Shown here: positions 35,240-63,567 of the stretch, piece by piece
How positions within the stretch are numbered: the stretch's first letter is position 1
Layout of the letters: each line of letters begins with the position of its first letter
Source: an uncultured Acidimicrobiia bacterium
Lineage (GTDB): Bacteria > Actinomycetota > Acidimicrobiia > IMCC26256 > PALSA-555
Length of the DNA: 64,000 bases
Reading direction: 5' to 3'
Assembly (NCBI GenBank): GCA_963731815.1
Contig: CAVSWW010000011.1
Location: forward strand, 343,466-407,465
Notes under the pieces: model-generated
The model's input: only the letters and a program-made list of their open reading frames with translations
Database searches by the model: none
Told to the model about the DNA's origin: nothing
Program-made: the position numbers and the translations under genes

Positions 35240-36530
35240 TTGATCCCCCGATACTCACTGGCACCCATGGCGGAGCTGTTCTCCGACGAGGCCCGGTACG
35301 CCACCTGGCTCGAGGTCGAGCTGCTCGCCGTCGAGGCGCAGGCCAAGCTCGGCGTCGTCCCCGCCGAGGCGGTCGCCGTCGTCCGGGAGCGGGCGAGCGT
35401 CGACGCCGCAGCCGTCGAGGAGCGCGAACGGGTCACCGACCACGACGTCGCCGCGTTCGTCGACGTCGTCCAGGAGCGGGTCGGGCCGCCGCACGGCGCC
35501 TGGATCCACCACGGCCTCACGTCGAGCGACGTCGTCGACACCGCGCTGTCGGTCACGCTCGTGCGGGCGACCGATCTCCTGCTCGAGACGGTCGACGAGC
35601 TCGAGGTCGCGATCGTGGCGCGGGCGCGCGAGCAGCGCGACACCCCGATGATCGGTCGCACGCACGGCATCCACGCCGAGCCCACGACGTTCGGCGCCAA
35701 GGTCGCGCTGTGGGCGCTCCAGCTGCGGCGCGATCGCGCGCGCCTCGTCGCGTGCCCGCACGGCCATCGCGGTCGGGAAGCTCTCGGGCGCGGTCGGCAC
35801 GTACTCCAACATCGATCCGGAGGTCGAGGCGTTCGTGTGCGAACGACTCGGCCTGGAGCCGGTGCCCGCGACGCAGGTGATCGCACGCGACCGCCACGCC
35901 GAGCTCCTGTACGCGTGCGCGTCGCTGGGCGCGGCGATCGAGACGTTCGCGCTCGAGATCCGTCACCTGCAGCGCACCGAGGTCGGCGAGGTCGCCGAGC
36001 CGTTCCGCACGGGTGAGCAGAAGGGCTCGAGCGCGATGCCCCACAAGCGGAACCCGGTGAAGTGCGAGCAGCTCTGCGGCCTGGCCCGGGTCCTGCGTGG
36101 CTACGTCACGCCCGCGCTCGAGAACGTCGCGCTCTGGCACGAGCGTGACATCTCGCACTCGTCCGTCGAGCGGATCGTGCTGCCCGACGCGTTCCAGCTC
36201 GCGCACTACATGACGGTCCGCTTCCGGACGATCGTCCAGGGCATGACCGTCGACGCCGATCGGATGCGCGCCAACCTCGACTCCACGCGCGGGCTCGTGT
36301 TCAGCCAGCCCGTGCTCCTCGCGCTGGTCGAGTCGGGGATGACGCGCGACGAGGCGTACCGCGCGGTGCAGCGGAACGCGACCGCCGCCACCGAGCAGGG
36401 CCGTGAGTTCGAGGCCGTCCTCGCCGAAGACCCCGACGTCACCGGCGCGCTCTCCGCCGAGCGGCTGGCGGAGTGCTTCGACCTGGGTCACGCGCTGGAG
36501 CACGCGACGCACGCGGTCGACGCGCTGTGA
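35240..36530 (+). CDS. purB: adenylosuccinate lyase, one frame break
   Basis: TTG 35240 follows GGGAGGA and opens MIPRYSLAPMAELFSDEARY... The break lies near 35755. The remainder is in ORF 35835..36530 (GSSAMPHKRNPVKCEQLCGLARVLRG, signature SSxMPxKxNP). Confidence 0.9.
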
Positions 36531-37415
36531 CGCGCATCGCGCTGCCGCACCACTACACGGGCAAGGTCCGCGACCTGTACGAGGTCGATCACGACCGGAT
36601 GCTGATGGTGGCGTCCGACCGCATCTCGGTCTTCGACGTCGTCCTCCCCGACGAGATCCCCGACAAGGGTGCCGCGCTCACCGCGCTCTCGACGTTCTGG
36701 TTCGACCAGACCGCCGGCGTGTGGGCCGAACCACCTCGTGTCGTCCGACCCGACCGACTTCCCGGAGACGGCCGGGCCCGACGTCGCCGGCCGGGCGATG
36801 CTCGTGCGCGCGGCGCGCCCCGTCCGCCTCGAGTGCATCGCGCGGGGCTACCTGTTCGGGTCGGCGTGGTCGGAGTACGAGGCGACCGGTGACGTGAACG
36901 GCCGCGGCCTCCCGAGCGGGCTGCGCCAGGCCGAGCGGCTCCCCGAGCCGATCTTCACGACGACGACGAAGGCCGAGTCCGGTCACGACGAGCCGCTGAC
37001 GGAGTCGGAGGCCGAGGCGCTCGTCGGCGCCGGCGTCTACGAGCAGGCACGCGCGGCGTCGCTCGCGATCTACGCCCATGTCGCTGCCCACGCCGAGCGG
37101 TGCGGGCTGATCCTCGCCGACACGAAGCTCGAGTTCGGGCTGCTCGGTGACGACCTCGTCGTCATCGACGAGATGTGCACGTCCGACTCGTCGCGCTACT
37201 GGGCCGCCGACCAGTACCAGGTCGGGTCGTCGCCGGCGTCGTTCGACAAGCAGTTCGTGCGCGACCACTACCTCGACCTCGGCTGGGACCAGCAGCCGCC
37301 GGTGCCGCGGCTCCCCGCTGGCGTCATCGACGGCACGCGGGCGCGCTACATCGAGGCCTACGAGATGCTCACCGGGAACAGCTTCGACGAGTGGTACGGC
37401 AACGAGGACGGCTGA
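36527..37415 (+). CDS. purC: SAICAR synthase, one frame break
   Basis: GTG 36527 overlaps the purB stop (GTGA) and opens HHYTGKVRDLYEVDHDRMLMVASDRISVFD. The break lies near 36720. The remainder is in ORF 36669..37415 (LECIARGYL.GS.WSEY, ILADTKLEFG, DEMCTSDSSRYW). Confidence 0.9.
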
Positions 37416-37463
37416 GATGGCCAGAGACGCAACCAGGAGAAGGCTCGTCGCTACGATCGCCGG

Positions 37464-37721
37464 GTGAGGTACGCGGCGCACGTCGACGTGACGCACCTGC
37501 CCGGGGTGCTCGACCCGCAGGGCGCGACCGTCCAGCGCGCGCTCCCGGCGCTCGGATACGACAACGTCTCGGACGTTTCCATCGGCAAGACCATCCGCCT
37601 CGTCGTCGACGCACCCGACGAGGGCGCGGCACGGGCGCAGGTCGAGGAGATGTGCGAGCGGCTCCTGGCCAACCCGGTGATCGAGGCCTACGAGATCTCG
37701 ATCAGCGAGCTCGGCCTCGGC
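37464..37721 (+). CDS. purS: FGAM synthase subunit PurS (no stop codon before purQ as assembled)
   Basis: MRYAAHVDVTHLPGVLDPQGATVQRALPALGYDNVSDVSIGKTIRLVVDAPDEGAARAQVEEMCERLLANPVIEAYEISI is typical PurS. It reads straight into purQ in the same frame. Confidence 0.75.
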
Positions 37722-38517
37722 ATGAGCCTCGACGTCGCGATCGTGCTGTTCCCGGGCACGAACTGCGAGCTCGACGTCGCGTACGCAGTGGACCGGCTCG
37801 GGGGAACACCGACGATCGTGTTCCACACCGAGCGCGACCTCGGCGGAGCCGACGCGGTGATCGTGCCGGGTGGGTTCGCGCACGGCGACTACCTGCGCAC
37901 CGGGGCGATCGCGCGCTTCTCGCCGATCATGGATGCCGTCGCCGCGTTCGCGCGTGACGGAGGCCCGGTGGTCGGCATCTGCAACGGGTTCCAGGTGCTC
38001 ACCGAGGCGCAGCTGCTGCCCGGCGCGCTGCAGAAGAACGCGGGGCTGCGCTTCCTGTGCACGACGGTCGAGGTCGAGATCGCGAGCACCCGTTCGGCGC
38101 TCACGAACAGCGCCGCCGTCGGCGACGTGCTGCGGCTCCCGATCAACCACTTCGAGGGCAACTACACGTGCGACGCCGCGACGCTCGAGCGCCTGCGCGA
38201 CGGCGACTGCGTCGTCGCCCGCTACGTCGACAACCCCAACGGCATCGCTCGACGACATCGCCGGCATCAGCAACGACGCCGGCAACGTCGTCGGGCTCAT
38301 GCCGCACCCCGAGCGCGCGGTCGAGGCGATCCTCGGCTCGGACGACGGCGCGGTGCTGCTGCGGTCGCTCCTCGCCGCGGCCGCGACGTCCGCGCCGATC
38401 GCGCCCAAGCCTCCACGGCGTCTCTGCACGCCGGCGCTGCAGGCGCTAGCGGGTGATCCCGGCCTGCTCGAGGACCTTGGCCGGGACGCCGAGCTCGCGC
38501 CAGGTCGCCGTACGTGA
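37722..38517 (+). CDS. purQ: FGAM synthase glutaminase subunit PurQ, one frame break; 3-prime end uncertain
   Basis: ATG 37722 opens [15 protein letters not shown], followed by [17 protein letters not shown] (catalytic Cys). The break lies near 38245, after which [11 protein letters not shown] is in the ORF 37870..38517 frame. The three frames stop at 38449, 38456 and 38517. Confidence 0.85.
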
Positions 38518-38845
38518 TGCCCTTCGAGTCGCCGTAGGCCTTCGCCACTCGCACGAAGTCGTCCTCCAAGGACGACAGGTCGACCTTCCCGGCCGTCTTC
38601 GCGGCGAGCTCGACCTCGAGGTCGCGCCGCTCCTGCACGAGCTGGAGCCGCTTCAGCGACGACGCGTCCTGTGACTCCTTCTCGATCGCGGCGAGGCGCG
38701 CCTTGATCGAGTCAGGCGTGCGCTGACGGCCGCGGCGCGGGCGGTGCTGCTCGAGCGCGTCGAGGTACGTCTTCACCGCTCGGCCCTGCTCCCGGCCCAC
38801 GGCCAGCTTCCGCTTGTGCTCGTCGGTCATGCCCTTTGGTGCCAT
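38446..38845 (-). CDS. conserved hypothetical protein (coiled-coil, C-terminal HTH-like tail), one frame break
   Basis: ATG 38845 follows GGAGATAAGG and opens [40 protein letters not shown]... An extra base near 38505 breaks the frame. The shifted frame gives ..[24 protein letters not shown] with a stop at 38446-38448. Confidence 0.5.
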
Positions 38846-38934
38846 CGGTCCCTTATCTCCAAATCCGCCCGCGGGCATGCCAGGATAATCGAGGAAGGCC
38901 ATTTGGCGAAATAGGGTCCCGATAGTCTCGCCAG

Positions 38935-41234
38935 GTGGCCCGAGCGAGCGACGCCACTCCACCGCCAGCTCGGGCTCACCGACGAGGAGCTCGCCGACAT
39001 CGTCGGGCTCCTGGGTCGCGACCCCAGCGAGCTCGAGCTCGCCATGTACGCCGTGATGTGGTCGGAGCACTGCTCCTACAAGTCGTCGAAGATCCACCTG
39101 AAACGGCTCCCCATCGAGGCACCGTGGGTGCTCGTCGGCCCGGGCGAGGGCGCCGGCGTGATCGACGTCGGCGACGGCCTCGCACTCGCGGTCCGCATCG
39201 AGAGCCACAACCACCCGTCCGCGATCGAGCCGTACCAGGGCGCGGCCACCGGCGTCGGCGGCATCATCCGCGACATCTTCTCGATGGGTGCCCGCCCGAT
39301 CGCGTTGATGGACCCGTTGCGCTTCGGACCGCTCGACGACCCGCGCACGCGGTACCTCTTCGAGGGCGTCGTGTCGGGCATCAGCGGCTACGGCAACTCC
39401 GTGGGCGTCCCGACGGTCGGCGGCGAAGCGGTGTTCGACTCCTGCTACCGCGACAACCCGCTCGTGAACGTGCTCTGCCTCGGCATCCTCGACGTCGACG
39501 ACCTCGCGCTTCGCGCGCGCCGAAGGCGCCGGCAACCTCGCGGTGCTGCTCGGGTCGTCGACCGGTCGTGACGGCATCGGCGGCGCGAGCGTGCTCGCGT
39601 CCGCGGCGTTCGACGCCGAGGCCGGCAGCGCTCCGCCCGTCGGTCCAGGTGGGCGACCCGTTCGAGGAGAAGCGGCTCATCGAGGCGACGCTCGAGCTGC
39701 TCGCGCAAGGGCTCGCGGTCGGCATGCAGGACCTCGGCGCGGCGGGCCTGTCGTGCGCGGCGTCCGAGACCGCGGCGAAGGCCGGTGCAGGCATGGACGT
39801 CGACGTCGCCCGCGTCGCCAAGCGCGAGCCGGGCATGAACGCGGTCGAGGTGCTGACCTCGGAGAGCCAGGAGCGGATGCTGGCGATCGTCGAGCCGGAG
39901 AACCTCGACCAGGTGCTCGCGCTGTGCGAGCGGTGGGAGGTGCGCGCGACGGTCGTCGGACAGGTCACGGACACCGGCCGCTTCCGCGTCTTCGACGGTC
40001 GCTTCGACGCCGTCGGCGTCGCCGGTGAGAACCCGCCACCGCCGAGCGGCGACGCCGCCCCATCGACGTCGTCGGACTCCCCGCCGCTCGCCGACATCCC
40101 CTGCGACAGCCTCGGCGACGGCCCGGTGTACGACCGTGAGCGCGCGCGGCCGGCCGACCAGGACGCGCGCCTCGCCGACGACCCTGCGCCCGCCCTGTTC
40201 GAGCGGTTCCCGGCCGGCAGCGACCTCGGCCCGGAGCTGCTCGCCCTGCTCGCGACGCCGACCGTCGCCGACAAGTCCTGGATCTGGCACCAGTACGACC
40301 ACCAGCTGTTCCTCAACACCGTCGTCGGGCCGGGCGGCGACGCGACCGTGCTCCGGCTGAAGGGCACGCCGCGCGCGATTGCCCTGTCGACCGACGGCAA
40401 GGCGCGCTTCTGCCGACTCGACCCCCGGACGGGTGCGCGGCTCGTCGTGCTCGAGGCGGCGCGCAACGTCGCGTGCGCCGGCGCCCAGCCGCGCGCCCTC
40501 GTCAACTGCCTCAACTTCGGCAACCCCGAGCACCCCGAGGTCATGTGGCAGTTCGCCGAGGTCATCGACGGCATGGCCGAGGCGTGCGCCGCGCTGAACA
40601 TCCCCGTGGTCGGGGGCAACGTGAGCTTCTACAACACGTCGGAAGGGCGCGACATCGACCCCACGCCGGTCGTGGGCGTCGTCGGCATCGTCGACTCGCT
40701 CGACGAGCCGCCCCCGGGCCCGGCGTTCGTGCCCGGCCACCACGTCGTCCTGCTCGGCACGACCGGAACCGACCTCGGTGGGTCGGAGTGGGCGTCGGTC
40801 CTGCACGGCCTCGACGCGGGACCGCCACCTGCGGCCGACCTCGACGTCGCCGCGGCGGTGCACGCGCTCGTGCGCGACCTGGTCGTCACCCGGCGCGTCG
40901 AGCGCGGTGCACGACGTCGCGGACGGCGGGCTCGCGGTCGCGATCACCGAGATGGCGATCCACGGAGACTGCGGCGCCGCCGTCGTGCCCGACGGGGACG
41001 TCCCGGCGCCCGCGTGGTGCTTCGGCGAGTCGGCGTCACGCGTCGTCGTGGCCGTCGACCCGGTCGGACCTCGACGACGTGCTCACCCGGGCGCGCGACG
41101 CGCGGATCCCGGCGCGCGATGCCGGCATGACGGGCGGCACGCGCGTGATCGTCGACGGTGTGCTGGACGTCGCGCTCGACGATGCCCGCGCCGCGTGGCG
41201 CGGCGCGATCCCGAGCCTCTTCGCCCCGACCTGA
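38935..41234 (+). pseudogene. purL: FGAM synthase subunit PurL, about 5 frame breaks as assembled
   Basis: GTG 38935 opens the gene. [45 protein letters not shown].. is in frame 2, [19 protein letters not shown] in frame 3, and VQVGDPFEEKRLIEATLEL..LNFGNPEHPEVMWQF..VVGGNVSFYN in frame 1. The tail runs through ORFs 40778 and 40473..41234. Breaks lie near 38960, 39520, 39640, 40900 and 41065. Confidence 0.85.
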
Positions 41235-41237
41235 CCG

Positions 41238-42846
41238 CTACGGCCCAGTCGTCGGCGGCGCCGTCGTCGGCGGAGCCGTGGTGGTCGTCGCCGGCGCCGT
41301 CGTGGTCGTCGCCTGCGTGCGAGGCGTCGTCCGCGGCGTGGTCGGCGGCACGGTCGTGATGGTCGTCGCGGTGGTGGTCGACGTCGACGACGTGGTCGTC
41401 GTGGTCGTGTCGTCGCCCCCGCCGCCGGCTGCGAGCACGACGCCGCCCCCGATGAGCAGCAGCGCCACCAGTGCGGCGGCGGCGATGATCAGTCCTCGCC
41501 GCTGCGGCGAGTTGTCCTCGGGGTCGCCCCCGCGACCACGCGGTGGCGGCGTCCCGCCTCCCGGGGGCGGACTGCCTCCCGGCGGCGGACCGACGACCAC
41601 AGGGTCGGTCGGCGCGCCCGAGCCGCCGCCGGCCTCGGCGCCGACGCCGGCGAGCTCGCCGGTCTCGTCAACGCCTCCTCCGCCGGCACCCGCGGCTGCC
41701 GCGGCCGCGGCAGCGGTGATGCCACCGGCCGCGGCGGCGGTCGCGACGCCCGCACCGGTCGCCGCGGCACCTGCGCGCCGGTCGGCCTCACCCGCGGCCG
41801 CGAGCGCCGCGCCGAGCGCGATTGCGTGCTTCGGGTGCACGTCGACGTTCACGGGACGGCCGAGGTCGGCCGTGATCATCTGCGAGACGAGCGGGATCCG
41901 CGACGACCCGCCGACGAGCAGCACCACCTTCACCTGGTCGGCGGTGACGCCTGCGCCCGTCGAGCGCGCGTCGCATCGCGTCGAGCGTCATCGACACCTG
42001 CGGGCGGATCATGTCCTCGAACTCGCCGCGCGTCAGCCGCACCTGGGTCTGCAGGTTCGGCAGCAGCACCGGGATCGACGCGTCGGTGTCGGACGACAGC
42101 GCCTCCTTGGCTGCGCTGCACTCCTGACGCAGACGGCCCACCGCGGCCATGGCCGTGGGGTCGTCCTCGTCGAGCTCTTCGAGCGCGCCACCGAGCGAGC
42201 GCTGCACGTGCGCGAACACCGCGGCGTCGAAGTCGATGCCGCCGAGGCGCTCGATGCCCTCGGGGGTGCCGAGGGTCTGCCAACCGGTCTCGGTCTTGCG
42301 GAGCACTGCCGAGTCGAACGTGCCGCCACCGAGGTCGTACACCGCGATCGTGTCGCCGACGTCGACACGCTCGGTCGATGCGTAGTGGATGGCGGCGGCC
42401 TCGGGCTCGGACAACGTGATCGCGTTGGTGAGGTTCGCCTGGCGGATCGCGTTGTCGAGCAGCTCGCGCTTGTACGCACCCCAGTTCGCGGGGTGTGACA
42501 CGGCGACGCGATCGGGCTCGCTGCCTTCGCGCTGCGCGACCTCGGCCACCACCCACCGGAGGAGCTCGCTCATCAGCAGCTCCGCCGAGTACGGCGAGCC
42601 GCCGAGGAAGATCGGCGTGGTGTCGCCGACGCGGCGCTTGAACTCGCGCGCGACCCGGTCGGGTTCGGTCGCCGCTCGGCGCTCGGCGGCCTCACCGGTG
42701 AGGACGGTGTCGGCGTCGCGCACGAGCACGATCGACGGGACCGAAGAGCTCCGGCTGCCGAGCGTGGCGACCTCCGTCTGGCCGTCACGCCAGGTCGCCG
42801 CCGCGGTGTAGGTCGTCCCGAGGTCGACTCCCAGCGAATACGCCAC
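41238..42846 (-). CDS. Hsp70-family NBD-only protein with Ala/Gly/Pro linker, one TM helix and Thr/Pro-rich tail; one frame break
   Basis: GTG 42846 follows GGAGAGGG and opens VAYSLGVDLGTTYTAAA... [12 protein letters not shown] and VLLVGGSSRIPLV are actin-like ATPase motifs. There is no substrate-binding domain. The break lies near 41950. The C-terminal part (ORF 41238..41933) has an AAAAGGITAAAAAAAAGAGGGG linker, the TM helix LIIAAAALVALLLIGGGVVLAA, then TTTTTTSSTSTTTATTITTVPPTTPRTTP... Confidence 0.8.
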
Positions 42847-42942
42847 GTCCTCATCCCTCTCCGGTCGTCGGCCGTCGGCGACGGCCTCGTTGCGCGGCAC
42901 AGTAGGCGAACCCCACCCCACCCGTCCTCGGGGTCAGACCCA

Positions 42943-42970
42943 GAGATCCGGAATGCCATTAGGGGATCTC
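42943..42970 (+). promoter_or_regulatory. inverted repeat in the divergent Hsp70-like / IniB-N intergenic region (candidate operator)
   Basis: GAGATCC-N14-GGATCTC sits in a locally AT-richer stretch (CCGGAATGCCATTAGGGG) between the divergent starts at 42846 and 43030. Confidence 0.3.
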
Positions 42971-43029
42971 CCCGATGGAACGACCGGCGGCGCTGCGTAC
43001 CCTGCGAGAGCAGAAGGGAGGAGGAAGCC

Positions 43030-43809
43030 GTGAGCGGCGGGACGTTCCTGGAGATGGCCCAGGACCTGGTGCACGACGCCGGGGCCAAGGCTGCGTTCGA
43101 CGCGGACCCCGACGGGTTCCTGGCCGAGCGCGGCTTCGACGGCCTCACAGCCGCCGACGTCACCGACGCCGTCGGCTTCGTCGCCGACACCCTTCCCGCC
43201 GACGCCGCCCGCCAGCTCACCGAGACGGAGGGCGACGGCGAGGGCCTGGCCCGCCTGGCCCAGCTCGACCCGAGCGACGTCGACTCCGAGCAGGAGCCCG
43301 ACTTCCTCGACAACGACCCGAGCGGGGAGCTGGATCTCCCCGACGAGAGCGCCGCGCCGGACGAACCCGGCACCGAAGACGCAGCAGGAGAGGAGGAGAC
43401 GATGGCAGCGGAGGCCGACGATGACGATCTCGACCCGGATCCCGTGGCCACGCACCACGTGGGGGCAGAGGAAGGTGGGTTCTGGCGGCAGGACGAGAAC
43501 GAGCAGGACCCGGGCTTCGGCGTCGGGTACACCCCGGAGGACGTCGACGACGTGTCGCCGGCAGCGCCGGAGATCGCGAACGTGCTCGACCACCCGCTCG
43601 ACCTGACGCTCGACGCGACGCATGTGCCTGATCTCGCCCTCGACGCGTCCGACCCGATCAGTGAGGCCTTCGCCTACGCCGAGCACGACGACACGGCCGC
43701 GCACCATGCGGACGCCGTCGAGCACGACGCGGGGCACGAGGTGCACGACGCCGGTGCGGACCACCACCACGACGGCGACCACGACGGTCACCTCGACCTC
43801 GACCTCTGA
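43030..43809 (+). CDS. IniB-N-terminal-domain protein with a long acidic disordered region and Asp/His-rich C-terminus
   Basis: GTG 43030 follows GGGAGGAGGAAG. The N-terminus FLEMAQDLVHDAGAKAAFDADPDGFLAERGFDGLTAADVTDAV parallels the N-termini of the two downstream paralogs and my memory of the IniB/Rv0340 N-terminal domain. The rest is Asp/Glu/Pro-rich and ends HHADAVEHDAGHEVHDAGADHHHDGDHDGHLDLDL. Confidence 0.65.
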   Translation: MSGGTFLEMAQDLVHDAGAKAAFDADPDGFLAERGFDGLTAADVTDAVGFVADTLPADAARQLTETEGDGEGLARLAQLDPSDVDSEQEPDFLDNDPSGELDLPDESAAPDEPGTEDAAGEEETMAAEADDDDLDPDPVATHHVGAEEGGFWRQDENEQDPGFGVGYTPEDVDDVSPAAPEIANVLDHPLDLTLDATHVPDLALDASDPISEAFAYAEHDDTAAHHADAVEHDAGHEVHDAGADHHHDGDHDGHLDLDL

Positions 43810-44008: not shown

Positions 44009-44580
44009 ATGCCGATCACACAGGTGGACATCGAGGGTGCCGAGAAGCTGCTCGAGGACCTCATGGGCAACCAGGAAGCAGCGGAGAGCTACTCGAAGGA
44101 CCCGGAAGGCTGGCTCAACGAGCACGGCTACGCCGACCTGAACCCCGAGGCGGTGGCGCAGTGCGGCGCGGCCTACGGCGGTGCGGGTGTGGCGACCGCG
44201 GGTGCCGGGGCCGCGAGCTCGGGCGTCGCGGGCGTGGTCGCGCAGCTCGACCCGGTCGTCTACAACAACTACTACGAGATCGACAACTCGATCACGAACA
44301 ACATCGAGAACCACGGGGACCTGGACTTCAACCAGCAGATCGGCGACGGGAACGTCAACGTCAACGACTCGACATCGACGGTGACATCCAGACCCAGACC
44401 GGTGACGGGATCCAGATCAACGACTCGGACATCGACAACTCGAACCTGTCCAGTGGTGACGACAACCAGCAGGCGATCGACCAGTCGACGAACACCGACG
44501 TCGACATCGACGTCGGCGCGCCGGAGGTGCCCACGAACGGCGCAACGAACGGCGAAGCCGAGGAGCTGGACCTGACCTAG
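44009..44580 (+). CDS. IniB-N-terminal-domain protein with Ala/Gly segment and Asn/Asp-rich repeat tail, paralog A, one frame break
   Basis: ATG 44009 follows GGAGGGGAA and opens MPITQVDIEGAEKLLEDLMGNQEAAESYSKDPEGWLNEHGYADLNPEAVAQC... This is followed by AYGGAGVATAGAGAASSGVAG, then VVYNNYYEIDNSITNNIENHGDLDFNQQIGDGNVNVNDS. The frame breaks at 44371/44372. The tail IDGDIQTQTGDGIQINDSDIDNSNLSSGDDNQQAIDQSTNTDVDIDV..EELDLT is in frame 1, with a stop at 44578-44580. Confidence 0.7.
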
Positions 44581-44615
44581 GCCGTCGGCTCCGTCCGACG
44601 CCACCGATCACGCGC

Positions 44616-44638
44616 GGCCCCGGACCCGGTCCGGGGCC
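44616..44638 (+). terminator. GC-rich hairpin after iniB-like paralog A (terminator or attenuator candidate)
   Basis: GGCCCCGGA-cccgg-TCCGGGGCC forms a 9-bp stem 36 nt after the stop. There is no U-tract. Confidence 0.4.
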
Positions 44639-44726
44639 GTCGCAAGCTCGACCGTGTGCTGTAAGCGGGCGAGGGGGGTCGGGCTCAGTCCTTCGGACTG
44701 GGACGACCACACAGGAGGGAACAGCT

Positions 44727-45321
44727 ATGCCGATCACGCAGGTGGACATCGAGGGTGCCGAGCAGCTGCTCGAGGACCTCATGGGCAACCAGGCCGAGGC
44801 CGAGGCGTACGCCAAGGACCCGCAGGGTTGGATCACCGAGCACGGGTACGAGAACGTGAACCCGGAGGCGGTGGCGCAGTGCGGTGCCGCGTACGGCGGT
44901 GCCGGTGCGGCGTCGGCGGGTGCCGGTGCGGCGACCTCGGGTGTCGCGGGTGTCGTGGCCCAGCTCGATCCGGTCGTCTACAACAACTACTACGACGTCG
45001 ACAACTCGATCACGAACAACATCGAGAACCACGGGAACCTGGACTTCAACCAGCAGATCGGCGACGGGAACGTCAACGTCAACGACTCGAGACATCGACG
45101 GTGACATCCAGACCCAGACGGGCGACGGGATCCAGATCAACGACTCGACGATCGACGACTCGAACCTGTCCAGTGGTGACGACAACCAGCAGGCGATCGA
45201 CCAGTCGACGAACACCGATCTCGACATCGACGTCGACGGTGGGCTCGAGCCCGTTCGGACGCTCGAGGCCGACGCGCCCGACGCGGCGGCGCCACCCGAA
45301 GACCTCGACGACGTCAACTGA
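44727..45321 (+). CDS. IniB-N-terminal-domain protein, paralog B, one frame break at the homologous site
   Basis: About 85% identical to paralog A by eye, with the same N-terminus and repeats. The frame breaks at 45089-45091 (GACTCG-A-GACATCGAC). The tail DIDGDIQTQTGDGIQINDSTIDDSNLSSGDDNQQAIDQSTNTDLDIDV..PEDLDDVN is in frame 1, with a stop at 45319-45321. Confidence 0.7.
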
Positions 45322-45344: not shown

Positions 45345-45369
45345 GCGGCCCCGGATCCACCGGGGCCGC
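45345..45369 (+). terminator. GC-rich hairpin after iniB-like paralog B, upstream of DLP1 (terminator or attenuator candidate)
   Basis: GCGGCCCCGG-atcca-CCGGGGCCGC forms a 10-bp stem 24 nt after the stop and 44 nt before the DLP1 ATG. There is no U-tract. Confidence 0.4.
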
Positions 45370-45412
45370 GCCTCGGCGCGTCGCGCGACTGCGTGAGCCA
45401 GGATGGCGCCCG

Positions 45413-47303
45413 ATGACCACGACCTCTGAGCCCGCGTCGCCGGCCGAAGCCGAAGAGCACCCGACGCCGCCCAGCCCGGCCGTCGACGCGACCATGGCCG
45501 CGCTGCACCTCACGACGAAGGCCACCACGGCCTACGGCCGGGACGACCTCTCCTCGCGGCTCAACATGGCCAAGCGCCGCCTCGACGACCCGGCGTTCCG
45601 TGTCCTCGTGGTCGGTGAGTTCAAGCAGGGCAAGAGCTCGCTCGTGAACGCGCTCCTGAACGCGCCGGTCTGCCCGGTCGACGACGACATCGCGACGTCG
45701 GCGCCCACCGCGGTGCAGTACGCCGAGCAGCTCGGCGCCCGGGTGCTCTACGCGCCGACCGACGACGATCCCGATGCCGAGCCCGAGACGGTCGACATCC
45801 CCGTCGACCGCGTGCGGGAGTACGTGACCGAGGCCGCGAACCCGGCGAACGAGCGGCGCGTCCAGTGGGTGGAGATCGGGGTGCCGCGCAAGCTCCTCGC
45901 GGACGGGCTGGTGCTCGTCGACACGCCCGGTGTCGGTGGCCTCGGCTCGGTGCACGGCGCGATCACCGCCGCCGCGCTCCCGATGGCCGACGGCGTCCTG
46001 TTCCTCTCGGACGCGTCGCAGGAGTTCTCCGAGCCCGAGATGACGTTCCTGAAGCAGGCGCTCTCGCTGTGCCCGAACGTGTGCTGCGTGCTGACGAAGA
46101 CCGACTTCTACCCGGCGTGGCGCAAGATCCTGGACCTCGACACCGAACACCTCGCGGCCCAGAAGCTCGACCTCCAGATCCTGCCGGTGTCGTCGGTCCT
46201 CCGGCAGCAGGCCCTCGAGACCGAAGATCGGGAGCTCAACACCGAGTCCGGGTTCCCGGCACTCCTCGAGTCGCTGCGCACCGAGATCGTCGGTGATGGC
46301 GAGCGCCGCGGGGTGCAGGCCGTCTGCTCGGAGATCCTCGCGGTCGTCGACCAGCTCGAGTCGCACTTCCGCTCCGAGGAGAAGGCGCTCGGTGGCACCG
46401 CGGAGAGCGCCGCCGAGCTCCAGCGCGACCTCGACCTGGCCCGCGCGAAGTCGGAGAAGCTCAAGAGCCAGACCGCGCGGTGGGCCCAGACGCTCAACGA
46501 CGGCATCGGCGACCTGAGCTCCGACGTCGACCACGACCTCCGCGGCCGCTTCCGCGAGATCATCCGCGAGGCCGACGAGGTCATCGAGGAGGGCGACCCG
46601 GCCGAGTTCTGGGAGGAGTTCGAGCCGTGGCTCTACCGCCGCACGGCCGAAGACGTCGTGTACTCCTTCCGTGTCCTCCAGGGACGCGCGGAGGAGCTCA
46701 GCGCGCAGGTCGCGGACCTGTTCGAGGTCGACCAGGAGGAGCTCGCGTTCCACCCCGACCTCATCGAGGGAGGCAGTGCGCTGGGTCGAGCCAACGCCAC
46801 CGCGTCGGCCGAGTTCAAGATCATGACCAAGGGCCAACGGATGATGACCGGCTTCCGCGGCGGGTACATCGGCGTGCTGATGTTCGGCGCGCTCGGTTCG
46901 ATGATCGGCCTCGCCATCGGTGCGCTGCCGGTCGCGGCCGGCCTGTTGATGGGCCGCAAGTCGCTGCGCGACGAGCAGGAGCGGCAGCTCAGCATCCGGC
47001 GCACGACGGCGAAGAACGCGATCCGCAAGTACCTCGACGAGGCGCAGTTCCTCGCAGGCAAAGAGCAGCGCGACACGCTGCGCCTGGTCCAGCGCCAGCT
47101 CCGCGACTACTACAGCACGCCGCGCCGAGGAGCTGCACCGCTCGGTCGCGGAGGCAGCCGGCGCGGCGGCGCAGGCACTGAAGTCCGACGAGGCGACGCG
47201 CACCAAGCGCCTGAAAGACGTGCAGTCGGAGCTCCAGCGGATCCTCGGGCTGCGCAAGATGGCGCTCGAGGCCCGTTCGATGGCGACCGAGGAAGAGACG
47301 TGA
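45413..47303 (+). CDS. iniA: dynamin-like GTPase with membrane hairpin (IniA-like), one frame break
   Basis: ATG 45413. GTPase motifs are G1 GEFKQGKSSLVNALL, G3 LVDTPGVGG and G4 TKTD. It has a long helical stalk and a hydrophobic paddle, GGYIGVLMFGALGSMIGLAIGALPVAAGLLMG. An extra base near 47118 breaks the frame. The tail RAEELHRSVAEAAGAAAQALKSDE..LEARSMATEEET is in frame 3 with a stop at 47301-47303. Total length is about 630 aa. The gene symbol rests on architecture and context only. Confidence 0.75.
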
Positions 47304-48766
47304 GCGACGCCCTGCTCGCGCGGGTGAAGGGGCTGCTCGACGACGCCGTCGGCGTCTACCAGGGCACGGAAGTCGCCGATCGACTGGCGGCCCAGCGGGC
47401 CCGGCTCGACGAGCCGCTGCGCGTCGCGATCGCCGGCCGCGTGAAGGCGGGGAAGTCGACGCTGCTGAACGCGCTCGTCGGCGAGCCGCTCGCGCCGACC
47501 GACGAGGGCGAGTGCACGCGCATCGTCACCTGGTACCACGACGGCGTCACCTACCGCGTGACGATCCACCCGCGGCAGGGCGAGGCCCACCCCGCGCGCT
47601 TCGACCGCCTCGACGACTCCGTGGTCGTCGACCTCGCCGGGCTCTCGCCCGACGACGTCGAGCGTCTCGACGTGGAGTGGCCGTCGTCGTCCCTCCGCGA
47701 GATGACGTTGATCGACACGCCGGGCATCGGCGCGCTCTCGGCCACGCCGTCGGCGGCCACCGTCGAGTTCCTCACCCCGGGTGAGGGGCGCGAGACCGAC
47801 GCCGACGCGGTGCTCTACCTGATGAAGCACCTCCACACGACCGACGTCGACTTCCTCTCGACGTTCCACGACGAGGAGGTGTCCCAGGCGACGCCGGTGA
47901 ACGCCGTGGCGGTGCTCTCACGCGCCGACGAGGTCGGCGGCGGACGGCTCGACTCCCTCGAGTCGGCCGCGACGGTCGCGGCCCGGTACGCACACGACGC
48001 GAAGGTGCGGCGCCTCGCGCAGACGGTCGTGCCCGTCGCCGGGCTGCTCGCGCAGACGGGCGTCACGCTCCGCGAGGCCGAGTACCAGGCCCTCGCGACC
48101 CTCGGACGCGCACCCGCCGACGACGTCGACAAGCTCCTCCTCTCCGCGGACCGGTTCGCCAACTCCGATGCGCACGTGGGCCTGACGACGATGGAGCGCC
48201 AGGCGCTGCTCGAGCGCTTCGGGCTCTTCGGCGTACGGCTCGTCGTCCATCTGATCCGTGAGGGCACGGTGACGAACGCCGATGCGCTGTCGAAGGAGCT
48301 CGAGTCACGCAGCGGGCTGCCGGAGCTGCGCGACGTGCTGCTCACACAGTTCGCCGAGCGGCGCGACCTGCTGAAGGCGCGCTCCGGCCTGCTCGCAGTC
48401 GAGTCCGCGGCCCGCGCCGATGGCCGCCCCGGATCGGACGCGCTGCTCGCGGACGTCGAGCAGATCACCGCGGGTGCGCACGAGCTGGCCGAGCTCCAGC
48501 TGCTCGCGTCGCTGCGAGCCGGCTCCGTGGACGCGAAGCCCGACGACCTGGAGGCGATGGAGCGTCTCGTCGGTGGCGAGGGTGCGACCACGCCGGCGCG
48601 CCTCGGGCTGTCGCCCGACGCCGACGCCGACGCGGTGCGTGCTGCGGCCGGCGCGGAGCTCGCGCGCTGGCAGAAGCGCGCCGAGAGCCCGATGGCGACT
48701 CGGGAGGCGGCGGACGCGGCGCGACTGCTGTGCCGGACCTGCGAGGCGATGCTCGCCTCGGCCTGA
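47300..48766 (+). CDS. iniC: dynamin-like GTPase without TM segment (IniC-like)
   Basis: GTG 47300 overlaps the DLP1 stop (GTGA). G1 is GRVKAGKSTLLNALVG, G3 is LIDTPGIGA, and a G4-like SRAD is present. The gene is intact at 488 aa. The gene symbol rests on architecture and context only. Confidence 0.75.
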   Translation: MSDALLARVKGLLDDAVGVYQGTEVADRLAAQRARLDEPLRVAIAGRVKAGKSTLLNALVGEPLAPTDEGECTRIVTWYHDGVTYRVTIHPRQGEAHPARFDRLDDSVVVDLAGLSPDDVERLDVEWPSSSLREMTLIDTPGIGALSATPSAATVEFLTPGEGRETDADAVLYLMKHLHTTDVDFLSTFHDEEVSQATPVNAVAVLSRADEVGGGRLDSLESAATVAARYAHDAKVRRLAQTVVPVAGLLAQTGVTLREAEYQALATLGRAPADDVDKLLLSADRFANSDAHVGLTTMERQALLERFGLFGVRLVVHLIREGTVTNADALSKELESRSGLPELRDVLLTQFAERRDLLKARSGLLAVESAARADGRPGSDALLADVEQITAGAHELAELQLLASLRAGSVDAKPDDLEAMERLVGGEGATTPARLGLSPDADADAVRAAAGAELARWQKRAESPMATREAADAARLLCRTCEAMLASA

Positions 48767-48769
48767 CGA

Positions 48770-49472
48770 TCAGCCCTGCTGGGTGTCGGCCGGGTTCGGG
48801 AGCACGGCGAGCACTTCAGCCGGTGGCTCGGGGATCGGCTCACCATCGGGCAGGAACGCGATCTCGATCACGTCCTGGTCATCGGGCTTGTAGTCGGCGG
48901 GGTTCCCGTCCTGCTCCTCGCCGTTCACGGCCCACCGGACGTTGCCGGGACGCCCGTCGGGGCACGGGTCGCCGTTGGTCACGTTGAGGTCGGCCCACAG
49001 CGGTGAGGTGGTCGTCGGCGACCTCCCAGCCGCCGTAGTCCATGAACCGTCCGACCGTCGCCCCGTCACCGGCCTCCTCCTCGGTGAACGGGTGGATGTG
49101 CAGGAGACCGTCGCCGTGCGAGTGGAGACCGGCCTTGGTCTCGGTGCCGGCCTGGACCTCGAACGTGGGCGCGTTCTCGGCGGGGAACCCGCAGATGCTG
49201 ATGCCGAGCGCGGCGTGGATGTGGTCGCCGATCGCGGGCTCGTCGGACTTCGTGAACTGCTCGTACAGCTGCCACGCGGCGACCAGCACCGCGATCCCGA
49301 TGATCGCGACGAAGGCGTACGTACCGAAGCCCTTGCGCTGGACCTTCGGCTTCTTCGGCTTCCCGCGCTTGGTCGTGGGGCGCGGCGGCGGCGTGGGCAC
49401 CGGCTGCTGCGGCGTGCCGCCGCCCGAGGCGGGCGGCGAACCGGGCGGTGGCGTCGGGGGCGGCTCGGACAC
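48770..49472 (-). CDS. single-TM protein with Pro-rich N-terminus and His-rich extracytoplasmic domain, one frame break
   Basis: GTG 49472 opens VSEPPPTPPPGSPP..KRGKPKKPKVQRKG, followed by the TM helix FGTYAFVAIIGIAVLVAAW, then DHIHAALGISICGFP..LHSHGDGLLHIHPF. The break lies near 49010. The tail SPLWADLNVTNGDPCPDGRPGNVRWAVNGEEQDGNPADYKPDDQDVIEIAF.. is in the ORF 48770 frame. It is convergent with iniC, 3 nt apart. Confidence 0.55.
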
Positions 49473-55573: not shown

Positions 55574-55648
55574 TGGTGGCCGGGACCGGCGTCGATCCGG
55601 TGACCTCGCGCTTTTCGGCGCGCGCTCTGCCAACTGAGCTACCCGGCC
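55574..55648 (-). tRNA. tRNA-Phe (anticodon GAA) with a 6-nt anticodon loop as assembled
   Basis: The reverse complement is GGCCGGG TA GCTC AGTTGGCA GAGC G CGCGC CGAAAA GCGCG AGGTC ACCGG ATCGACG CCGGT CCCGGCC A CCA. It is 75 nt where 76 are expected, and U33 is missing from the loop (CGAAAA instead of CTGAAAA). The underlying bases are confirmed by the overlapping ORF-track translation (ERAPKSARS). Confidence 0.85.
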
Positions 55649-60286: not shown

Positions 60287-60351
60287 CCCCACTGTTCGCT
60301 CGGCTGCACCTCGCTCACGCGCGGAGCTCACCGTTCAGCTGGTTCGGCATC

Positions 60352-61493
60352 TCAGGCGGCGGCGAGCGCGTCGGCGAGGTCCGTCGCCGGACGACCGAGC
60401 GCCTCGGCGACCACCGCGTTCGTCACGTTGCCCGCCACCGTGTTGACGCCCGCGGCCAGCTCCGGATCGACCTCGGTCGCGCCGCTCACGCCCTTGGTCG
60501 CCAGCGCGAGCGCGTACGGCAGCGTGGCGTTGGTGAGCGCGTACGTCGACGTGTGCGGCACCGCCGCCGGGCATGTTGCCGACGCCGTAGTGGAGCACGC
60601 CGTGCAGCTCGTAGACGGGGTCGGCGTGCGTCGTCTCGCGGATCGTCTCGATGCAGCCACCCTGGTCGACGGCGACAGTCGACGATGACCGAGCCGGGCT
60701 TGCATCGACCGCACCATGTCCTCGGTGACGACGATCGGGGCGCGTCCGCCGGGCACGAGCACCGCGCCGACGACGAGGTCGGCCTCGGCGACGGCGCGCG
60801 CGACGGCGCCGCGGTTGCTCGCGAGCGTCACGATGCGCCCCTGGTGGATCTGGTCGACCAAGCGCAGACGGTCGAGGTTCTTGTCGAGCAGCGTGCACCT
60901 CGGCCTCCATGCCCTGCGCGATCCACGCCGAGTTCCACCCGACGTTGCCGGCGCCGAGCACGACGACGCGAGCCGGGCGCACGCCGGGGACGCCCCCGAG
61001 CAGGACGCCGCGGCCCCCGTGCTCGCGCTCGAGGAAGTGCGCGCCGATCTGGGTCGCCATGCGGCCCGCGACCTCGCTCATCGGCGCGAGCAGCGGCAGC
61101 GCGCCGTTCGTCGAGCTGCACCGTCTCGTACGCGACGCCCGGTCACCTTCTGCTCGAGCAGCGCGTCGGCGACCGCGGGGTACGCGGCGAGGTGCAGGTA
61201 GGTGAAGAGGACGAGCCCGGGCCGGAGGTGCCGCGAGCTCCTCGTCCTGCGGCTCCTTCACCTTCAGCACGATGTCGGCGCGCGCCCACACGTCGTCGGC
61301 GCCGTCGACGATCTCGGCGCCGGCGCGGCGGTAGTCGTCGTCGGTGATCGACGAGTCGGCGCCCGCGTCCGTGCTCGACGAGCACGTCGACGCCGTGCGC
61401 GCGCGAGCTCGTGCACGCCGTCGGGAGTGATCGCGACGCGGTGCTCGCCCTCCTTGACCTCGCGGGCACGCCGACCGTGCGCACTGCCGCCAT
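60352..61493 (-). pseudogene. ald: alanine dehydrogenase, about 9-10 frame breaks as assembled
   Basis: Fragments in all three minus frames, in order: MAAVRTVGVP / REVKEGEHRVAITPDGVHELARA / HGVDVLVEHG / AGADSSITDDDYRRAGAEIVDGADDVWARADIVLKVKEPQDEE / LRPGLVLFTYLHLAAYP / LLAPMSEVAGRMATQIGAHFLEREHGGRGVLLGGVPGV.PARVVVLGAGNVG / DQIHQGRIVTLASN / [24 protein letters not shown] / AVPHTSTYALTNATLPYALALA. Confidence 0.8.
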
Positions 61494-61507
61494 CTCGTCG
61501 CCTCTCG

Positions 61508-62950
61508 TCAGGTGCCGGAGCGCTGCCAGGCCCGGCCGGTCGTTCGCCCGCCGGCCGGTGCCATGGCGCTTCCACGCCTCGGTCAGGCACGGTGCGCAAC
61601 GTGGACTCGATGATGTCGAGCTCGGCGTCGCCGGCGATCAGCGGCGGTGAGAGCTGCACGACCGGGTCGCCACGGTCGTCGGTGCGGCAGATCAGGCCGG
61701 CCTCGTACAAGGCGGGGCGAGAGGAACCCGCGCAGCAGGTCTCGGACTCGCTCGTCGTGAACGTCGCCTTCGTGTCGCTGGTCCGCGACGAGCTCGAGCG
61801 CCCAGGAAGTAGCCGGCGCCGCGGACGTCGCCGACGATCGGGATGTCGCGCAGGCCCTCGAGCCGCTCGCGGAAGCCGGCCTCGTTGCGGCGCACGTTCT
61901 CGAGCACGTCCTCCTCGCTCGAACACTCGAGGTTGGCGAGCCCGACCGCGCAGCTCACCGGGTGGCCGCCGAACGTGATGCCGTGCAGGAACGAGCTGTG
62001 CCCCTCGAGGAACGGCTCGGCCAGGTGGTCGCGGCAGATCACCGCGCCGAGCGGCGAGTAGCCGCTGGTGAGGCCCTTCGCGCACGTGATCATGTCGGGC
62101 AGGTAGTCGTACCGCGTCCGCGCCGAACCACTCGCCGAGCCGGCCGAACGCGCAGATCACCTCGTCGGAGACGAGCAGCACGCCGTACTGGTCGCAGATC
62201 TCGCGGACGCGCTGGAAGTAGCCCTCGGGCGGCACGAAGCAGCCGCCCGCGTTCTGCACCGGCTCGAGGTACACCGCGGCGACCGTCTCGGGCCCCTCCG
62301 CAGAGGATCGCCTCCTCGATCGCGTCGGTCACCGCGAGCATGAACGCCTTCGTCGTCCTCGCCCAGCGGGTGGCGGTAGCGGTTCGTGTTCATCGACGTG
62401 CGACGCGCCGGGCGTCAGCGGCTCGAACGGCGTCCGCAGCGCGGGGACGCCGGTGATCGCGAGCGCACCGAGCGTGGTGCCGTGGTACGCGGTCTCGCGC
62501 GCGATCACCTTGTAGCGCTGACCCTCGCCGCGCACGCGGAGGTACTGGCGCGCGAGCTTCCACGCCGACTCGACCGCTTCGGAGCCGCCGGTGGTGAAGA
62601 AGACGCGGTTGAGGTCGCCGGGCGCGAGCTCGGCGAGGCGCGCCGCGAGCTCGATCGCCGGCGGGTGCGCGTACTCCAGATCGGGAAGTACTCGAGCGTC
62701 TCGGCCTGCTCGCGCCGCGGCCTCGCGCGAGCTCGCGCCGACCGTGACCGAGCTGCACGGTGAAGAGCCCCGACAGGCCGTCGAGGTAGCGCTTGCCGTT
62801 CGCGTCCCAGACGTAGCAGCCCTCGCCGCGCGCGATGATCGGGACGTCGCGCCCGCCTGCGTACGCGCCGAGGCGGCTGAAGTGCATCCAGAGGTGACGG
62901 CGCGCCAGCTCCTCGAGCGTCGACGTCGTGGACGTGAGCGCTTGCGTCAC
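61508..62950 (-). pseudogene. class-III (omega) PLP aminotransferase, many frame breaks; 3-prime end uncertain
   Basis: GTG 62950 opens MTQALTSTTSTLEELARRHLWMHFSRLG..PIIARGEGCYVWDANGKRYLDGLSGLFTVQLGHGR. Later fragments are FFTTGGSEAVESAWKLARQY, KVIARETAYHGTTLGALAITG, VYLEPVQNAGGCFVPPEGYFQRVREICDQYGVLLVSDEVICAFGRLG, ITCAKGLTSGYSPLGAV, HGITFGGHPVSCAVGLANL and LICRTDDRGDPVVQLSPPLI. Candidate stops lie at 61508 or 61583. Confidence 0.75.
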
Positions 62951-63425
62951 TCATCGGGTACCCCATGCGTAGGTCTGCTTGTACAGACGGAGATAGGTGA
63001 AGGTCTCGGTCGCTGCGCACACCGGGGATGGCGCGGATCTTGTCGTTGAGCAGCGCGAGGAGGTGGTCGTCGTCCTCGCACACGACTTCGAGCAGCAGGT
63101 CGAACGAGCCGCCCACGATGACCACGTAGTCGACCTCGGGGATCGACGAGATCGTGTCGGCCGCGGCCGCGGAGGTCGCCCTCGACGCTCAGCCCGACCA
63201 TCGCCATGCGCCGGAACCCGAGCGTCAGCGGGTCGGTGACCGCGACGATCTGGGTGACGCCCGACTCGATGAGCCGCTGCACCCGCTGACGCACGGCGGC
63301 CTCGCGAGAGGCCGACCCGCGTGCGCGAGGCGCGTGTACGGCAGCCGACCGTCCTGCTGGAGCGCCTCGATGAGCGCCTTGTCGGTCTCGTCGAGGACGA
63401 CGGGGTCGGACGCCGACCGGGCCAT
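62951..63425 (-). pseudogene. Lrp/AsnC-family transcriptional regulator, about 3-4 frame breaks
   Basis: ATG 63425 opens MARSASDPVVLDETDKALIEALQQDGRLPYTRLA. It continues as AVGLSEAAVRQRVQRLIESGVTQIVAVTDPLTLGFRRMAMVGLSVEGDL / YVVIVGGSFDLLLEVVCEDDDHLLALLNDKIRAIPGV / TETFTYLRLYKQTYAWGTR in other frames. The stop abuts the aminotransferase start. Confidence 0.75.
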
Positions 63426-63567
63426 GCCCCGACGATGGCACGAGCGCGGGACCGCGCGCAAGGGATTCCGTGGTCTTTACCGCCGAGACACGTGGATTCC
63501 ACGGTTCGGGCGGGCCTGAACTGCGGATCACGTCGTAGCCGTGTGCCGGCCCTCCTAGGATGCCCTC

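Follow-up and report, generated by a model that had tools for sequence, protein, structure and literature searches.

Frame breaks at one shared column of two tandem iniB-like genes are very probably consensus errors of the contig

Two adjacent iniB-like genes lose their reading frame at the same column in the DNA analyzed here, a stretch of 64,000 nucleotides with 71% GC (the window). One copy lacks a base and the other has one too many. Is this a trait of the organism, such as inactivation or recoding, or a trace of how the contig was built? We consider it very likely that both frame breaks are consensus or assembly artefacts and do not exist in the organism’s DNA; the assembly is metagenome-derived and error-prone, probably built from long reads.

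The lesions and their gene neighborhood

The two paralogs and the structures that follow them are arranged as listed below.

44009..44371, plus strand: copy A, 5′ part, codons 1–121, ending in ...GNVNVNDS; window frame 2; IniB_NTERM 18.9 bits
44366..44379, plus strand: copy A lesion, reading GACTCGACATCGAC, i.e., GACTCG-ACATCGAC, with the GG of TCGGAC reduced to a single G
44372..44580, plus strand: copy A, 3′ part, (D)IDGDIQTQTGDGIQINDSDIDNS…EELDLT, stop TAG at 44578–44580; window frame 1
44612..44640, plus strand: GC-rich hairpin after copy A; −31.6 kcal/mol, z = −3.6; no U tract
44727..45089, plus strand: copy B, 5′ part, codons 1–121; window frame 0
45084..45099, plus strand: copy B lesion, reading GACTCGAGACATCGAC, i.e., GACTCG[A]GACATCGAC, with a surplus A at 45090
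45091..45321, plus strand: copy B, 3′ part, DIDGDIQTQ…PPEDLDDVN, stop TGA at 45319–45321; window frame 1
45345..45370, plus strand: GC-rich hairpin after copy B; −38.7 kcal/mol, z = −4.5; no U tract

When the two sites were read again, both lesion sequences were as an earlier sequence-only reading of this DNA had given them. Frame assignment bore out its claim that the copies need opposite corrections: copy A passes from frame 2 to frame 1, which requires a −1 shift or one added base, and copy B from frame 0 to frame 1, which requires a +1 shift or the removal of one base. Its spacing of 718 nt likewise holds from ATG (44009) to ATG (44727), and an RBS-like GGAGG lies upstream of the start of copy A. 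In a pairwise alignment, the copies differ at the lesion by a 2-nt ‘GA’ indel. After the shift, copies A and B alike encode DIDGDIQTQTGDGIQINDS…. The tail of copy A has 93–98% identity to P0001 and P0113, two homologs without a break, and the 3′ part of copy B is near-identical to P0004, an intact protein of 197 aa. As had been noted, the unshifted frame of copy A stays open to a TGA at 44573, 5 nt short of the true-frame TAG at 44578. The window’s own ORF at this place (P0040) is not read through at the junction, and P0103 is the annotated, shortened product of copy B, present in the protein collection and derived from the same contig of 828,689 bp.

Once repaired, the proteins consist of a helical N-domain of ~55 aa, a short Gly/Ala stretch followed by a helix, and an Asp/Asn-rich low-complexity C-terminal half. 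The NCBIfam model NF038175 (IniB_NTERM) scored 18.9 bits for copy A, 20.1 for copy B and 34.5 for the gene upstream, all under its cutoff of 40, and the E-values of 1e-3 to 1e-8 suggest distant homology only. A Pfam search of the iniB-like proteins gave no match; PF27122, precomputed on some homologs, went unmatched in the local copy. The AlphaFold2 model had a mean pLDDT of 69, with confident N-terminal helices and values of about 50 in the C-terminal half, junction included, and a Foldseek search of this model against the PDB returned no match.

The neighboring genes are the following.

41788..42980, minus strand: divergent Hsp70-like gene; breaks at 41961 and ~42854; frames −3 / −2 / −3; PF00012 on the L012 ortholog
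43030..43809, plus strand: intact 259-aa gene of IniB N-terminal type (Rv0340/IniB-related); Rv0340_fam 20.6 bits; 98% to the L001 ortholog
45413..47303, plus strand: dynamin-like GTPase 1 (dyn1, IniA-like); Dynamin_N 4e-36
47300..48766, plus strand: dynamin-like GTPase 2 (dyn2, IniC-like); begins with a GTG that shares bases with the stop codon of dyn1 (GTGA)

This layout recalls that of mycobacteria. The iniB-like pair lies directly upstream of the two dynamin-like GTPase genes, so that small proteins with an IniB-type N-domain are followed by two GTPases with overlapping stop and start, and a further IniB-related gene stands upstream, comparable to Rv0340. M. tuberculosis IniB has a long Gly/Ala-rich body; in its place, the proteins described here have a short Gly/Ala linker and an Asp/Asn-rich tail. 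Their N-domains score only 18.9–34.5 bits, the host belongs to an uncultured high-GC actinobacterial group, and an Hsp70-like gene is part of the conserved neighborhood. We find it reasonable to use ‘iniB-like’ as a description of context; the scores stay below the curated threshold for family membership. The mycobacterial iniBAC operon (Rv0340-iniB-iniA-iniC) likewise encodes two dynamin-like proteins, namely IniA and IniC (PMC6715688, PMC10240201); its regulation is treated in PMC5760070.

The order purB … purL, hsp70-like gene, IniB-domain gene(s), dyn1, dyn2 is conserved in five short-read MAGs (L003, L006, L008, L009 and L010), whose records are labelled Acidimicrobiia or ‘uncultured Bifidobacteriaceae’. 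In L003 and L006, only one iniB-like gene stands at the syntenic site, and at least two further copies lie on other contigs (L004, L005, L007). The tandem duplication is seen only in assemblies closely related to the window; alternatively, short-read assembly may have collapsed it. The hairpins may act as terminators or attenuators between the iniB-like and dynamin genes. Between purL and the hsp70-like gene, the plus strand of 41233–41792 is coding-like, extremely rich in Pro, Ala, Gly and Val, and aligns poorly to L003 and L006.

The paralogs themselves (44009–45321) form a mosaic, with about 85% identity over codons 1–89, 95% over codons 90–170, and unrelated C-terminal tails. Chimeric relatives exist (P0002, P0111), e.g., with the head of copy A and the tail of copy B. 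As judged from these sequences, mosaic identity and chimeras point to probable gene conversion or recombination between the copies.

Intact relatives and the question of recoding

The sequence-only reading had postulated an intact form of the junction, GACTCGGACATCGAC, and this form does exist, in 8 of 10 copies from five closely related assemblies. L001, L011, L012 and L013 have it at both copies, copy B of L011 with ATCGGC; the other two copies, in L002, carry GAGTCGACGATCGAG, an in-frame Thr allele. The lesion site is in frame in all ten, as TCGGACATCG in eight and TCGACGATCG in two, and GACTCGGACATCG is present exactly in eight. L011, L012 and L013 come from near-identical strains and L002 is more distant; the identity of L001 to the window is 96.5% over 10 kb. 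No codon of the family varies more than the one that follows ‘NDS’ (D, T, V, A, S, N or W), and both TCGGACATC and TCGACGATC are found among co-occurring strains. Two scans of JGI metagenome contigs with junction patterns allowing 1–4 variable bases found neither the broken nor the intact allele.

A protein search with repaired copy A returned 102 homologs, mostly about 185–220 aa in length. In an alignment of 24 sequences, all homologs except P0040 cross the junction in a single frame. Orthologs sharing the split arrangement had been named as the mark of a real feature; all orthologs proved to be single-frame.

These data bear directly on programmed recoding, by which ribosomal frameshifting (−1 in copy A, +1 in copy B) or transcriptional slippage would yield both full-length and truncated products. 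One base re-read in copy A, or skipped in copy B, restores exactly NDSDIDGD, and the 0-frame codon after Ser in copy B is AGA, presumably a rare codon at 71% GC. Against this, the two copies would need to shift in opposite directions, and the mechanism would also have to cover purB, purC, purL and others. Neither a slippery heptamer (X XXY YYZ) nor a homopolymer is present at either junction (AAC GAC TCG ACA in copy A, GAC TCG AGA CAT in copy B), and UCG is unable to re-pair in the +1 frame (CGA). Compared with shuffled sequences, the 80 nt downstream showed no stimulatory RNA structure (z = +2.05 for A, +0.69 for B). The two-frame arrangement is not conserved in orthologs: those with 96–98% identity and about 100 homologs are all single-frame, by which recoding is effectively refuted, and we regard it as extremely improbable. 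The earlier rejection of a shared programmed frameshift therefore stands, on the missing slippery site and stimulatory structure as well as on the in-frame relatives.

Phase variation was considered and discarded as well. Phase-variable contingency genes offer a likeness, in that small indels switch the frame in a putative envelope-associated paralog family, whereas here no tract is present, and TCGGAC falls outside the length series of TCGAC and TCGAGAC. The site has no homopolymer or short tandem repeat tract, and no length variants occur among the 10 related copies. The proposal of a genuine, possibly phase-variable inactivation thus finds no support, given the missing repeat tract and the intact state of all ten further copies from five close relatives.

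Frameshift load and recurrent error columns

The frameshift density of the window is about 1 per kb. A GC3 frame-HMM proposed 64 candidate frameshifts in the 64 kb, counted as same-strand switches not coinciding with stop codons. In the interval 33.6–53.7 kb, ~21 frame changes were verified by homology (tblastn; the queries were ORFs from L003, a short-read MAG with synteny to the window): two lie in the hsp70-like gene, one in dyn1 at about 47119, and several in minus-strand genes at 49–52 kb. Two further features illustrate the load.

35267–41231, plus strand: purB, purC, purS/purQ and purL; breaks at ~35748, 36728, 38244, 39511, 39627, 40899 and 41064–41068
55574–55648, minus strand: tRNA-Phe-like gene adjoining tRNA-Asp and tRNA-Glu; 6-nt anticodon loop CGAAAA, without the near-universal U33

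The NCBIfam profiles of the pur genes continue over the frame changes: purB matches profile positions 10–171 and then 175–433, purC 12–70 and then 74–296, and purL, with four breaks, 1–178, 182–215, up to 606, and 612–665. PurQ is also split between frames, and dyn1 passes from frame 2 to frame 0 by an extra base at about 47115–47120, in a CG-rich stretch. Identity to orthologs is equal on either side of a break (purB 86.6 and 86.5%, dyn1 89.8 and 89.5%), which argues for consensus errors and is unlike decaying pseudogenes. Many frameshifts thus fall in conserved essential genes that bear no other sign of decay. Among the localized errors of the window, ~21 of 24 are single-base insertions, mostly outside homopolymers. 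For the tRNA-Phe-like gene, ARAGORN reported the anticodon ‘aa’, and the gene is absent from the Rfam listing at the gathering threshold; its missing U33 is probably another 1-nt deletion error.

The candidate frameshifts are unevenly spread, with 30 in 24–40 kb, 14 in 56–64 kb and only 3 in 8–24 kb. Such an uneven density speaks against one uniform error rate and for causes that act locally, e.g., coverage or strain-variable segments. On the minus strand of 60300–63450, a putative gene for an Lrp/AsnC-type regulator, a putative one for a class-III aminotransferase and a putative alanine-dehydrogenase-like gene each extend over three frames, as seen by eye.

Several of these errors recur in other assemblies at the very same column, as seen in five- to eleven-way alignments in which the short-read MAGs L003, L006 and L008–L010 were taken as truth. 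At column 41961, in the hsp70-like gene, the window has one additional base (CGTCAGCG to CGTCGAGCG), and so has L011, while L002 is longer and L001 shorter; L012 and the five short-read MAGs aligned (L003, L006, L008, L009, L010) are correct. At column 47117 of dyn1, the window, L001, L002 and L013 share a +1, and L011, L003 and L006 are intact. At column 45657, L001 and L002 have +1 and L013 has −1. Indels of opposite sign at one column are therefore a documented behavior in data of this type. The assemblies with recurrent columns come from different samples, with strains differing by 4–13%. Such coincidences would be very rare if errors were uniform and independent, so that indels at identical columns in independent assemblies indicate a strongly site-dependent error process. 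Sibling assemblies also have the same iniB-like genes frameshifted in their tails at other places (P0110, P0115). As arbiters of window-specific indels, L001 and L002 are misleading, since they contain more noise than the window does and share errors. The site 49001–49005 seemed to be shared with L002 in one alignment, did not in a tighter one, and was left uncounted.

How surprising, then, is the shared column? For two ORFs of ~580 nt and a density of ~1 frameshift per kb, the expected count is roughly 1.2; the number of breaks is unremarkable, and the shared column alone needs explaining. Under uniform, independent errors at this rate, a double hit on one column has a probability of roughly 5e-4, a figure that overstates the surprise, since the errors are demonstrably non-uniform. 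With site-specific errors, one column hit in two copies that have identical flanks is hardly a surprise. Identity between the copies is 94.6% over codons 90–170, compared with 85.4% over codons 1–89, and tens of bases flanking the site are identical. With flanks so alike, a difficulty that depends on context or sample would be met twice in one read set. In such data, ‘the same position twice’ is weak evidence for biology.

Sources of the two lesions

Taken as errors, the two lesions can be accounted for as follows. In the organism, both tandem paralogs most likely have TCGGACATC at the junction, so that their products would be intact, with lengths of 190 and 197 aa. The same column would have been affected in both copies through the site-dependent error process acting on near-identical local sequence. 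As to the exact step, whether base-calling, strain mixture or polishing, we infer a possible contribution from the strain alleles TCGGACATC and TCGACGATC, because aligners may write a variant of several bases as a deletion paired with an insertion. If the deletion were accepted without the insertion, exactly the TCGACATC of copy A would result. The TCGAGACATC of copy B follows from this allele mixture only if a further allele is assumed (AAC or AGC at the variable codon), and we retain the idea as a partial, candidate contributor. By our own arithmetic with minimap2 default parameters, an indel pair outscores three mismatches in long-read alignment. Nearby allelic variants have been described to cause wrong read alignments and, through these, INDEL errors in collapsed long-read assemblies (PMC8445201), and indels in long-read consensus sequences lead to frameshifts in gene calls (PMC9262707; proovframe preprint 10.1101/2021.08.23.457338).

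The window resembles error-prone long-read assemblies and MAGs in its ~1 indel per kb, which breaks well-conserved genes with unchanged identity across the breaks, and in errors at fixed sites, with sibling assemblies breaking the same genes elsewhere. It differs from the classic nanopore error, a homopolymer deletion, in that single-base insertions outside long homopolymers predominate. In one sibling sample, two consecutive contigs of a single assembly (L012, ERZ25039531 contig_79551, and L001, contig_79552) both cover the locus, and L012 ends inside it. The pair shows strain heterogeneity at this locus, apparently as a strain bubble in the iniB-like / dynamin cluster.

A narrower form of the artefact explanation is a deterministic base-calling error at the motif CTCGGACATC, e.g., through a DNA-modification motif, acting independently of strain mixture or duplication. 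It fits the way in which independent assemblies show indels at the same columns, as well as the several insertions creating TCGA(G/A), at 40899, 41961 and 45090 in the window and at 45657 in L001 and L002. The outcomes at the two lesions are nevertheless unlike, with a G lost in one and an A gained in the other, and the motif is correct in 8 other instances in sibling assemblies. Moreover, an identical 18-mer, AACGACTCGGACATCGAC, was read correctly at 44420–44437 in copy A, 54 nt downstream of the lesion. We regard this narrower form as rather unlikely, though it deserves serious consideration. Polishing artefacts and systematic motif error had both been proposed earlier. The window-wide frameshifts and recurrent columns strongly favor them in general, while an error determined purely by the k-mer is weakened by the intact 18-mer and by the intact site in other error-prone assemblies. 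Cross-mapping within the 718-bp duplication, also proposed, is neither shown nor needed.

Three caveats apply to the artefact reading: the lesion site is no general hot spot, being intact in 10 of 10 instances in five other error-prone assemblies; the 18-mer was read correctly nearby; and the lesion of copy A is a deletion, the rarer type of error here (insertions ~21/24). For these reasons we leave a small chance that at least one of the lesions is real.

Genuine strain-specific inactivation would require that a fragile site mutated twice, or that gene conversion carried a single mutation from one copy to the other, where it was later altered. In that case both genes would be pseudogenes or sources of truncated N-domain proteins. 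The lesions are confined to this assembly (2 of 2 copies, against 0 of 10 elsewhere), and the raised inter-copy identity over the surrounding 240 nt, together with the chimeras P0002 and P0111, indicates active conversion that could couple the copies. Conversion would, however, give identical copies and not a −1 in one and a +1 in the other. The site offers no repeat tract as a mutational hot spot, and protein conservation is undiminished past the break in both copies. With ~1 frameshift per kb in essential genes, an error is likelier by orders of magnitude than a fixed real indel, and we consider strain-specific inactivation very unlikely. More specifically, real lesions in this strain could mean two hits on a site, fragile or targeted, within the codon that varies most in a pair of recombining paralogs, which seems to us a slim prospect indeed. 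Both paralogs of an envelope-stress operon would in that case be silenced, by a repeat-independent on/off switch or by convergent loss.

Rates lead back to consensus or assembly error as the preferred reading. The measured error rate here is about 1e-3 per base, and a fixed coding indel, by our own rough guess, has a rate of 1e-5 per base or less, so that two artefacts are favored by well over one order of magnitude against any real-mutation scenario. We are accordingly highly confident that both lesions belong among the several dozen consensus indels of a low-accuracy contig and do not reflect real biology.

The main value of the result is a quality flag of about one frameshift per kb on this contig. 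P0040 (188 aa) and P0103 (125 aa) are artefact ‘proteins’ already present in public protein collections, and claims of pseudogenes or recoding derived from this contig are not trustworthy without reads. The lesson for method is that indel errors can fall at fixed columns across independent samples, with either sign. Separate from this finding, the cluster of Hsp70-like and IniB-domain genes with two dynamins, conserved in uncultured high-GC actinobacteria, is mildly interesting in itself.
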